64,000 nt of DNA from Candidatus Sulfomarinibacteraceae bacterium. Lineage in GTDB: Bacteria > Acidobacteriota > Thermoanaerobaculia > Thermoanaerobaculales > Sulfomarinibacteraceae. The position numbers are program-made. Positions 19,801 to 22,800 of the stretch are shown in pieces. The stretch covers positions 229,859-293,858 of the forward strand of contig CAWCLO010000007.1 of NCBI GenBank assembly GCA_963796455.1, read 5' to 3'. Every line of letters starts with the position of its first letter. Within the stretch, counting starts at the first letter, position 1.

Positions 19801-22800
19801 TTCACACCCACGATCGAGCACAGGAAGAGAATCCGGCGCTCCTGTTTATCGGGAAATTCAGCCGGTCAAAGGGCCTTCCCGAACTCCTGGACGCCTTCGA
19901 TCGAGTTCGGACGCACCGACCGGAGCTTCGGCTCCACGTCGCCGGAGGGGGCTCCGGCAACGAAGCGGACGAGTTGCGAGCGAGAATGGAGCGGATGGCT
20001 CCATCGGTTGAAATGCACGGCCGGTTGCCGCAATCGGCAGTCGCGGATCTGGCCCGGCGAGCAACGGTGTGCGTCCTCCCATCCTTTTACGAAGGACTTC
20101 CTCTCGTTCTGGTTGAGGCGCTGGCCTGCGGATGTCATCTCGTGGCGACCAATTTGCAGGGCATCCGCGAGGAGCTGGCGCCCCGGCTCGGCGATGCCCT
20201 GACTCTGGTTCCGTCGCCACGAATGATTTCTATCGACCGACCCGACCCCGGCTCCCTGCCGGTCTTTGTCGATGATCTCGCGACTGCAATCGATCAAAGC
20301 CTCGACAAGGCACCGATCGGCGACCCGAAAGCCTCTCTTCCAGAAGCCCTCGAGACCTTCTCCTGGACCGCTGTTTTCGAGCGGGTGGAACGGATCTGGC
20401 AGGGCCTTCTCTGATCTCAGACCAGTTCGAGCACCCGTTCCGTGGGCCGCCCGAGGACCGCCCGTTTCCCCGTAATGGCGATCGGCCGCTCGATCAGCCG
20501 TGGGTGCTCCACCATCGCCCGAATCAGTTCGTCGCGATCGAGCGTGGTGTCGGCGAGACCGAGTTCCGTGTATTCCTTCTCGCGCTTGCGCATGAGTTCG
20601 CGAGGTTCCATTCCGAGCATTTTCAAGACGCCCTCGAGTTCCCCAGCCGTCGGGGGTTGCTTGAGATACTCGACGATTTCGAAGTCGATTCCTTTGTCAC
20701 GAAGCAGGCTGACCGCCTGCCTGGATTTGCTTCAACGGGGGTTGTGCCAGATGACCAGTGGCATGGATATTCCTCCTTGGCAGCGATCATAGCCCGGACG
20801 GATGCTGGATGCTCGATGCTGGATACTTGACGCTGGATCACTGCTGTCCAAAACAGATCGTCACCTGAAGTTACCCACCTGACAACACGTGGTTTACGGG
20901 TTGGTTTTTGGCATATCCGGTTCGCGGTTGGCACGTACCCGTTCCCGATCCCGAATTGCAGCGGCAGCGACAGTGTCCAGCGTCAGCGACAGACAACAGC
21001 GAACAGGGACAGCGGTCAGTGTTCAGCGCCAGAGAGCAGCGGCAGCGGTCAGGAGTACAGGCGACGAAGTGGCCACCATCGGGTCGTTCAACAGAAGAGG
21101 TAGCCGGTGGGCGGCCGATGTCAAGGACAGGCAGGGTGCAGGGCATCCTTGACATCGGCCACCACACCGGCTTGTGGGTATGGGCATGAACGACCCGGAG
21201 GTGACCATGTCCTCAGCCGCCACGAACACCAAACTCGTTGCCCACTCGAAAGCACTCGAAGCCGCAGGAATCGCGATCAAGCTCGTGATGAGGGTTCCAG
21301 CTCCTCTGAAGTCGATAGCCGATCAGGTGATCCGGTCGGCAAGTTCGGTCCCTGCGAACCTGGCAGAAGGGCACGGCCGGTTTGGTAGAGACCGGTCGAA
21401 CCACTGGAGGATCGCCTACGCCTCGGCCAAAGAGGTCGACAGCCACTTGCAGCTTCTCGCTCACGCCGGGGCGATCAGCCCGAACAGAGCCAGTGAAGCG
21501 ATGAAGGCCTTTGATCAGGTGCGTGCAATGACTTGGAGATTGCTCAACCCGAAGTCTTGATTTCAGGGCCCCATGCCAGTCAAACGTGACGCTGACTCCT
21601 GTTCGCTGACGCTGAACACTGATTGCTGTTCCCTGTCCCTGACGCTGATCGCTGTCGCCGTCCCTGAACGCCAGCCGAGACTCTGTCTTGGACAAGAGTG
21701 ACGCTGGATGCTGGAACCTCCGCGGCGTAGCCGGAGGGAAAAGCCTGAGAAACCGCAGATCACGCAGATCAACGCAGATTGACCCTCGCAATGGCCGTCG
21801 TGGCAAACACCATTGCCCACAGAACACACAGAAAAGCATGGAATAAGGCGCAAAGAACGCAAAGATGCCATGAACCTGAAGAAAAGAACCTCGACCGTCG
21901 CAAAAGTAAAACTTAGCGTCGCCTTTGCGCTTTTTGCGTTCTTAGCGTTTTTAGCGTTGCAAAACGGCGCCTTTACAGCAACCGCCATTCCTCAGGTGCC
22001 GCCGGCCCGGACGCGGCTCAGACCGGCGGATCCAGTATCCAGAATCACAGCTGTCCAAAACAAATCGTCATTTGAAGTTTTCCACCTGACAGCACCTGGT
22101 TTACGGGTTGGTTTTTACCGTATCCGGTTCGCGGTTGGCCCGTACCCGATTCCGATCCCGAGCCCGAATTGCAGCGGCAGCGACAGTGTCCAGCGACAGG
22201 GACAGGGAGCAGCGACCGGGTTCAGCGATCAGTGTTCAGCGGCAGCGATCAGGAGTCCAAGCGACGAAGTGGCCTCCTCCGGGTGGTTTTACAGAAGGAA
22301 CAGCGGTTGTGGTGTAGGCGTCTCGCCTGCACACCGCGCGGCCGAGACGGCCGCACCACAAAGGCCGGAGCCCGAAGAAGTGAATGCTGTTCGCTGTCCC
22401 GGCCGCTGATCACTGACGCTGATGACTGATTGCTGCCGCTGACTCCTGATCTCTGTCGCTGTCCCTGTTCGCTATCCGAGAACCTGTCTTGGACAAGAGT
22501 GATCCAGAATCTAGTATCCAGCATCAAAAAACGCCCCCGCTCAAATGAGCGGCGGCGTTCCTGGTTCCAAATTCAGACGTCCTTCAGCGTTTCCAATCTT
22601 CGACGAAGTCGGCTGGATTCCGGTTTTCGCCGTCGTCTCGGACCTCGAAGTGAAGGTGCGGGCCGGTGCTTTTGCCGGTCGATCCCACCGTGGCAATGAC
22701 CTCCCTTTGCGAAACCCGTTGCCCGGCATCTACCGCCAGTGATCCGAGATGGGAGTACATGGTCGTGAGACCCTGGCCGTGGTCGATAATGATCACCGTC

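Follow-up and report, generated by a model that had tools for sequence, protein, structure and literature searches.

A conserved two-tier hairpin ahead of multi-copy IVP genes in Sulfomarinibacteraceae as a candidate fold-back promoter on single-stranded DNA

Introduction

Promoters that act on single-stranded DNA (ssDNA) rebuild a -35 and a -10 box by folding and stay inactive while the DNA is duplex (PMC9849209, PMC11541004, PMC12672017). They are known from plasmid leading regions. PMC9849209 describes them with canonical -10 boxes. Within this Frpo/ssi group, the hairpin that precedes ardB on F has been named Frpo3, of class 2 (bioRxiv 10.1101/2025.04.03.647016), and also ssp2 (bioRxiv 10.64898/2026.01.09.698686), the latter source reporting in addition that ssDNA promoters both prime DNA synthesis and block it. 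For class-2 promoters in pESBL, namely those of klcA and ardA, start sites have been mapped (PMC12672017).

Two other described systems share single features with the locus presented here. The tnpA leader of the mobile element IS200 holds a near-perfect Shine-Dalgarno (SD) sequence paired in a stem (PMC4513863), and ORF-bearing 23S intervening sequences have complementary borders and repeat units ahead of the ORF (PMC4990558). Our literature search, which covered openly accessible main texts, found nothing on an ssDNA promoter or a structured leader ahead of IVP (23S_rRNA_IVP) genes.

Here we analyse such a leader from Candidatus Sulfomarinibacteraceae bacterium (GCA_963796455.1). The window is a stretch of 64,000 nt (contig CAWCLO010000007.1, positions 229,859-293,858, forward strand), and all coordinates count from its first nucleotide. 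Judging from the model developed below, the leader probably works like a class-2 ssDNA promoter; it is nevertheless kept apart from that group, since a full -10 box and a plasmid leading region are both absent.

Results and Discussion

Structure and conservation of the leader

The leader folds into a two-tier hairpin that is far above chance on both strands. As plus-strand RNA, the region 21072-21217 has a minimum free energy of -80.4 kcal/mol (z -6.74), with 0 of 200 shuffles equally low, and the reverse strand folded as RNA scores better (-84.3, z -8.45). Folded as DNA, the minus strand reaches -51.1 (z -9.85) versus -47.1 (z -7.63) for the plus strand. The genome contains 68 full-length leaders, 57 of which are followed by an intact 117-aa ORF. 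Among these copies column identity is 97.0% in the leader versus 92.9% in the coding sequence (CDS), and the stems are 98-99% identical among all 68 copies versus 86% at CDS third positions. In an alignment of one leader per genome from 34 genomes (48 pairs), 94.5% of 1,604 cells form pairs versus 25-43% in slid controls, a figure lowered by one of the 48 pairs being misplaced by a column, and 24 of the 48 pairs have changed on both sides versus 8-11 in the controls. The hairpin is real and under selection. A search against Rfam returned sub-threshold chance hits only. A preliminary description of this DNA had proposed the two-tier fold, its compensatory pairing, the better conservation of the leader and its lack of an Rfam family, and these proposals hold in the enlarged set, the conservation claim being understood relative to the CDS.

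The outer helix is formed by a 5' arm (21070-21090, plus strand) and a 3' arm that includes the SD sequence GGAGGTG (21197-21203, plus strand). The first of these had been described as an anti-SD; the pairing is present, but at this copy the anti-SD reads CACCATC (21074-21080), two changes from CACCTCC. Across the genome the exact anti-SD occurs in 51 of the 68 copies and the exact SD/start in 57. The inner helix, whose 3' arm occupies 21146-21172 on the plus strand, had been given as 24 bp with an invariant box; here it contains 25 Watson-Crick pairs together with a single A.C and a single bulge, and the box is better called near-invariant, because its pair is intact in only 63 of 68 copies. 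The hairpin tip lies at 21128-21145, and the two helices are separated by an internal loop whose gene-side half spans 21173-21186 (plus strand).

The downstream gene (21207-21560, plus strand) encodes a four-helix-bundle protein of 117 aa from the family PF05635/TIGR02436. With a dN/dS of about 0.11 among the 57 intact copies, the protein is under purifying selection, which implies that it is made at some time.

A promoter-like signature on the minus strand

On its minus strand the 5' arm carries TTGACA, a spacer of 16 or 17 nt, and (T)A. In the present copy the -35 box TTGACA lies at 21119-21124 (minus strand) and is separated by 16 nt from the -10 position TACCTC at 21097-21102 (minus strand), in which the inner helix ends with the pair of T-12, A-11 is the first base left unpaired and T-7 is absent. 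The non-template side of the internal loop, a putative pre-melted bubble, covers 21091-21101 (minus strand) and is 11 nt long here.

So as not to select for the promoter motif, leaders were recruited by DNA or protein similarity alone, which gave 44 scored leaders from 26 genomes out of 52 IVP matches; of the other eight, two are cut by a contig end, three fold with an insert beside the box, two have long insertions and one was left unexamined. A-11 is found in 43 of the 44 leaders, T-12 in 39 and a spacer of 16-17 nt in 42, so that the folded arm rebuilds a duplex -35 box at sigma-70 spacing from the -10 position. All five leaders that lost T-12 retain A-11, and one other copy keeps the T and has no A. 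At the counterpart position on the plus strand, A-11 occurs in 0 of 34 leaders. In the 34-genome alignment the spacer sequence covaries freely with compensation, and the core of the -35 box is nearly fixed. The internal loop opens precisely at -11, each of its sides being mostly 11-15 nt long. A paired T-12, an unpaired A-11 and an open bubble are the geometry of the sigma-70 open complex. The template strand of the gene folds into a long, stable hairpin just 5' of the coding region.

The -10 element itself amounts to two bases only, which is a point against a promoter. Host promoters have the form TTGACA-17-TAnnnT, with T-7 in 54 of 70, versus 5 of the 44 leaders, where the full TAnnnT hexamer is therefore generally lacking; from this difference the leader is expected to be weak as duplex DNA. 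In 20 of the 44 leaders a T stands one base past the -7 position, and one copy, L046, is fully symmetric.

These last two observations, together with the perfect -35 box and spacing on the minus strand, would suit an ordinary outward duplex promoter. IS10 has such an outward promoter, pOUT. By analogy, TTGACA-16/17-TA would direct an RNA complementary to the anti-SD arm, which could open or destroy IVP transcripts arising by read-through. We regard this as improbable: T-7 is as rare as stated above, a promoter consensus scan found no promoter, and an outward promoter would require neither spacer pairing across the hairpin nor an ATG where +1 falls on the opposite arm (see below).

On the plus strand, the TTGACA of the 3' arm (21149-21154), which pairs with the -35 box, was considered as a duplex promoter and rejected, there being no -10 and no A-11 in any of the 34 leaders. 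It had been suggested earlier that this TTGACA could start a transcript free of the anti-SD. As a duplex promoter it fails; if it pairs with the -35 box in a fold-back promoter, just such a transcript is predicted. Back-to-back TGTCAA/TTGACA is also seen in ordinary divergent promoters, which speaks against the fold-back reading.

Evidence on the strand and the molecule

Non-canonical pairs differ between the strands, since A.C on the plus strand is G.T on the minus strand. Across the 34 genomes there are 35 cells with A.C versus 13 with G.U (20 versus 8 column types), giving p 0.002 and 0.036, values that are inflated by kinship. Among pairs drawn by RNAfold within this genome, G.U outnumbers A.C by 94 to 21 cells, with 10 versus 16 types, the A.C count leaving out two consensus C.A mismatches (60/68 and 40/68 copies). 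Selection on the mRNA sense would tolerate G.U and not A.C; such a pattern is absent across the 34 genomes and mixed within this one.

In the relatives the hairpin tip carries mini-hairpins, and 71 of 102 (57 distinct tips) end in triloops. Loops of the type C-GNA-G, which are reported to be far more stable in DNA than in RNA (PMC13037366), occur 29 times on the minus strand versus 7 on the plus strand, and no GNRA or cUUCGg tetraloop was found in the tips on either strand. The strand counts of GNA loops in two sets of look-alike hairpins (described below) are 10 versus 11, without bias, and 17 versus 5. As a weak sign in the same direction, DNA folding favours the minus strand in 23 of 34 genomes. 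As far as sequence patterns can tell, the mismatches and the GNA mini-hairpins favour minus-strand DNA. The tightest-constrained features point to the same strand and molecule: the -35 box and its spacing to (T)A, the loop that opens at -11, the ATG at +1, the excess of A.C over G.U, and GNA triloops without RNA tetraloops.

An ATG at the predicted start and its consequences for translation

A conserved ATG (21186-21188, plus strand) lies at the predicted +1, which falls at 21184-21186; it is in frame with the IVP gene and 7 codons ahead of the SD-led start. Counted from the -35 box, the ATG is at offset 35 (= +1) in 25 of the 44 leaders and at offset 34-37 in 38 as scored, or 41 with three copies that were scored on an earlier ATG. 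It is in frame in 40 of 42 cases and preceded by a pyrimidine in 38 of 42, and its A is invariant although unpaired. In four copies, each from a different genome (L360, L377, L361 and L363), there is no second, SD-led start, and an ORF of 124-125 aa starts at the +1 ATG. Four copies without an SD in the outer helix (L360, L374, L375 and L377) keep this helix, so that the first codons would be covered all the same. On the plus strand the gene-side loop is rich in G (220 of 429 letters), and L361 has GGAGG 7 nt ahead of the upstream ATG, so the loop may itself serve as an SD for that ATG; this would count against the promoter model, because it requires an RNA longer than the model yields.

In the mRNA-sense fold the anti-SD pairs with the SD and the start codon. 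By computation, about 24 kcal/mol is needed to open the ribosome site in RNA that reads through the leader, versus 8-9 in RNA started at +1. By a crude count, 31 of the 57 intact copies lie downstream of a long ORF on the same strand, from which we conclude that read-through into IVP copies occurs. Since a transcript of the whole leader would bury the SD and the start, silencing of read-through RNA is plausible. IS10 and IS50 are protected against read-through transcription, and a lock on the SD would be useful here as many copies sit downstream of host genes. The preliminary description had envisaged about 65 translationally silent copies; the count is now 68 leaders, 57 with an intact ORF, and silence is plausible for read-through RNA.

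One may go further and suppose that the plus-strand RNA structure serves primarily to hide the SD and start, in read-through or other leader-containing transcripts, until it is opened by a protein, an antisense RNA or an RNase III cut, as in IS200 (PMC4513863). The strong SD at ideal spacing within a helix of roughly 20 bp, the difference in opening energy, the position of many copies behind host ORFs and the purine-rich plus strand on both sides of the loop speak for such a lock. It does not account for TTGACA and (T)A at promoter spacing on the minus strand, for an ATG at +1, for the preference of A.C over G.U across genomes or for the DNA-type triloops; moreover, the outer helix persists where the SD is lost, no opening mechanism is visible, and there is no Rfam match. 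We therefore hold this primary role, which the preliminary description had favoured, to be rather unlikely, and take SD burial in read-through RNA as real but probably secondary to the fold-back promoter.

The cassette and its genomic setting

Leader and gene are carried by a transposase-less shell of 862 bp (20839-21700, plus strand), which has terminal inverted repeats CAC...GTG and folds as one long rod. Within it they lie between CAGCG and CGCTG repeat arms, the left arm (about 20958-21069, plus strand) pairing with the right (about 21588-21680). The shell is flanked by a 9-bp target-site duplication (20830-20838, repeated at 21701-21709). Such a duplication is exact at 20 of 60 end-pairs and has at most one mismatch at 32 of 60, and no other length among 4-12 shows the effect; as the targets are heptamer arrays, some of the matches may be array repeats. 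The shell resembles an element that moves by cut-and-paste as duplex DNA. The only DDE_Tnp_1 match, at about 61.2-62.4 kb in the window, was rejected as the cognate transposase because its ends differ, and no search beyond it was made.

Two more copies of leader and gene lie in the window, at 16975-17470 (plus strand) and at 18490-18970 (minus strand, 112-aa ORF). All 68 copies are dispersed among ordinary genes across 9 contigs, which is unlike a conjugative leading region, although no copy-by-copy search for oriT was made. They show no significant replication-strand bias (40 versus 28). A gene-less sister cassette at 22046-22501 (plus strand) shares the shell and the 5' outer arm, but its hairpin differs and has neither -35 boxes nor TA; the gene-less core in the same shell has 72 copies in the genome. 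The shell is also found in deleted forms and with inverted cores. In relatives, leader and gene sit in other shells, or with the repeat arms alone. Loop flips, core inversions and one symmetric copy were observed among the copies and show that the arms copy each other. That the 5' arm might pair with the 3' end of the ORF agrees with the sequence of this genome, but was rejected, as the loop bases concerned vary in relatives.

The same traces of arm copying would be left by a neutral palindrome that template switching keeps perfect and that travels as cargo of the shell. Copy-correction would, however, also close the internal loop, yet the loop stays open, always at one position and with the same bases unpaired (A-11 and the A of the ATG), and the stems are far more uniform than CDS third positions, as reported above; we see very little chance that the hairpin is neutral.

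As to sources of single strands, the genome encodes six Y1 (HUH) transposases, and no reverse transcriptase, a possible source of minus-strand cDNA, was found in this 90.5% complete assembly. ComEC and DprA are present; this says little, because they are matched in most control genomes as well. Viral contigs gave 19 motif matches, with no IVP among the 10 ORFs of testable length and no relative found by protein. The cut-and-paste character of the shell, the lack of strand bias and the negatives for reverse transcriptase and viral contigs speak against a promoter that depends on ssDNA.

The Y1 transposases, the minus-strand and DNA-type signals and the reported priming and blocking of DNA synthesis by ssDNA promoters (bioRxiv 10.64898/2026.01.09.698686) would also suit a recognition site in ssDNA or antisense RNA that serves mobility, such as a single-strand origin, a binding site for an HUH transposase or for IVP, or a 6S-like polymerase decoy, rather than a gene promoter. 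Against it, the SD and an ATG that is in frame at +1 link this geometry to expression of the gene, 72 gene-less cores that lack the boxes have spread in that shell as well, and there is no 6S match; we give this explanation a small probability.

Comparison with described systems

The closest likeness is to the class-2 promoters, F ssp2/Frpo3 and those of pESBL: in them, as in the leader, the template strand folds back, and the distal arm carries CCCTTG(A/C), a spacer, GGC and TA. With the boxes assigned here from the fold, the template strand of the F hairpin before ardB reads CCCTTGCAT-15-GGC-TAAGAT, is mismatched from -11 and holds GGAGG in the outer helix. The leader shares with it the mismatch from -11, a downstream helix containing GGAGG and a small gene downstream. 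It differs in having a spacer of 16-17 nt rather than 15, no T-7 whereas F ssp2 has one, a bubble of 11-15 nt rather than 3 nt, a much shorter hairpin, and an in-frame ATG at +1. The likeness is one of motif only, and we claim no sequence alignment beyond it. In contrast to the promoters of plasmid leading regions, the leader is chromosomal and occurs in about 68 dispersed copies within a transposase-less cassette.

The SD-sequestering stem-loop of the IS200 tnpA leader, which is accompanied by art200, likewise buries an SD in the stem of a mobile element. The present leader instead controls a four-helix-bundle gene rather than a transposase, its mismatches favour the other strand, and its helix outlives the loss of the SD.

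The 23S intervening sequences of Coxiella, Leptospira and Xanthomonas (XCC0516) encode the same protein family (S23p/IVP) and share the complementary borders and the repeats ahead of the ORF, whereas the IVP cassette is intergenic and multi-copy, with a strong SD and purifying selection. A search for rRNA at this copy and at 19 related loci found no match, so that insertion into a 23S helix finds no counterpart at these loci.

In 6S RNA, two helices flank a central bubble and mimic an open promoter, and the leader has the same arrangement. It differs from 6S RNA in its sequence-specific -35 box and DNA-type triloops, and its plus-strand RNA has no A-11. The Rfam covariance model of 6S matched neither this copy nor the 19 related loci.

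Look-alike hairpins in other phyla

Patterns with the two spacer classes, which did not specify T-7, were used to scan other sequences, with thresholds and clustering of our own choice: metagenomes at spacers of 16-17 nt and, as a comparison set, named genomes at 14-15 nt. Both scans turned up numerous hairpins of this two-tier form that are unrelated. Among the metagenome matches listed, 70 of 127 fold into two tiers, forming at least 33 clusters, 2 of them with IVP; in the named genomes, 71 of the 121 matches listed do so (at least 30 clusters), with clusters, among those listed, in Actinomycetota, Bacteroidota, Gammaproteobacteria and others. Three distant IVP genes stand behind 14-15-nt versions among the matches listed. 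Again among the matches listed, T-7 occurs at a 15-nt spacer in 20 of 26 hairpin clusters versus 5 of 20 non-hairpin matches, at 16 nt in 19 of 22 non-IVP hairpin clusters, and at 17 nt in 1 of 10 hairpin clusters versus 9 of 13 non-hairpin matches. Within the matches listed, the last comparison argues that the combination optimal in duplex DNA (17 nt with T-7) is avoided where the hairpin forms. In a sample of the phylum, 9 of 300 other genomes match the strict motif; of six such loci inspected, two, both from one genome, have the same hairpin and four resemble ordinary divergent promoters.

Proposed mechanism

We think it fairly probable that the leader serves the housekeeping sigma-70 polymerase as a fold-back ssDNA promoter, one that has a pre-melted bubble and is weak in duplex form. 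When single-stranded, the minus strand, which is the template of the gene, would fold back on itself, its distal arm taking the place of the non-template strand. TTGACA, the paired 16-17-bp spacer and T-12 would then be double-stranded, the internal loop, reaching from -11 to about +1, would offer a ready transcription bubble, and the outer helix would stand for the downstream duplex, its 5' arm providing the non-template strand from about +2 to +22. We infer that polymerase could recognise this fold, initiate at 21184-21186, on or beside the conserved ATG, and continue into the IVP gene. The resulting mRNA would be free of the anti-SD arm, with a ribosome site that takes 8-9 kcal/mol to open, and could be translated from the SD-led start or as a leaderless message from its 5' AUG; leaderless translation from a 5' AUG is a generally known route. 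A further possible role of the RNA is to prime synthesis of the second strand. Activity in duplex DNA should be weak, because the signal faces away from the gene and T-7 is absent, and the hairpin would, as a by-product, silence read-through RNA from host promoters.

More tentatively, we propose that a selfish chromosomal cassette makes IVP only while it is ssDNA, as when it enters a cell by transformation or conjugation, lies in a repair gap or takes a transfer form of its own. It would do so from the pre-melted fold-back promoter, through a leaderless-capable mRNA that begins on AUG; the trade-off between spacer and T-7 would disable the promoter in duplex DNA, and the hairpin would gag read-through RNA. 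The leader would then belong to a cross-phylum class of hairpins (TAGC...TGTCAAGG...CCTTGACA) that includes F ssp2, and IVP proteins would be products of early genes triggered by ssDNA.

If the model is true, a chromosomal, high-copy version of the ssDNA promoter with a built-in open bubble would represent a new coupling of gene expression to the state of DNA. The analysis also yields a short motif with which other phyla can be searched for promoters of this kind. For the long-unexplained IVP/S23p proteins, the model would give a first handle on when they are made.

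Two-tier hairpins across phyla

Among the matches listed in the motif scans (loci L103-L222 and L223-L341), two-tier hairpins carrying TAGC...TGTCAAGG...CCTTGACA form a class that spans phyla and is represented in the genera Kribbella, Actinokineospora, Actinomadura, Mucilaginibacter and Sedimenticola. The listed hairpins mostly lie in repeat families or precede small genes without a known function, and T-7, the last base of the full -10 box, is mostly present among them when the spacer is 15-16 nt and mostly absent at 17 nt. In genome G287, from a different class of the same phylum, two loci (L088 and L090) have a two-tier hairpin like that of the leader, with TATGCT/TACACT at 16 nt; no IVP gene was seen directly behind either hairpin.

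Variants of the leader and its surroundings

The gene-less core (window positions 22046-22501 and 71 other copies) retains the 5' outer arm of the leader, whereas two palindromes with GTCTC, arranged as an inverted pair of 80 nt, take the place of the predicted promoter boxes and the gene; this pair resembles a REP doublet. One common deletion, found in at least six copies (genome G000, C1:368313, 391083, 470243, 661743, 999977 and 1137322), brings the inner 5' arm next to the middle of the gene, with the junction at a GGCCG microhomology, and thereby removes the 3' arm, the predicted +1 and the SD. At L019 (genome G001) and L361 (G036), inserts of ~110 nt or more separate the two arms of the hairpin.

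Further IVP genes, at G000 C10:732940 and in three weaker matches, are single-copy with different short-repeat arms, and no leader-type hairpin was seen within 170 bases upstream of them. Antisense to IVP genes, ARAGORN called seven 90-95-nt tRNA-Asp genes (G000 C1:256404, C1:372006, C10:210759 and others), which are probably false and produced by a cloverleaf-like fold of the IVP template strand. The DDE_Tnp_1 insertion sequence on the minus strand (window positions about 61040-62420) has inverted ends of its own and is unrelated to the cassette shell.

Hairpins with possible promoters on both arms

On one viral contig, L072 and L073 are repeated long inverted repeats with full predicted promoters on both arms, located ahead of small phage genes. 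At L046 (genome G077), L177, L229 and L323 the hairpin is symmetric, each arm carrying TA; by this sequence feature, either single strand could form a promoter.
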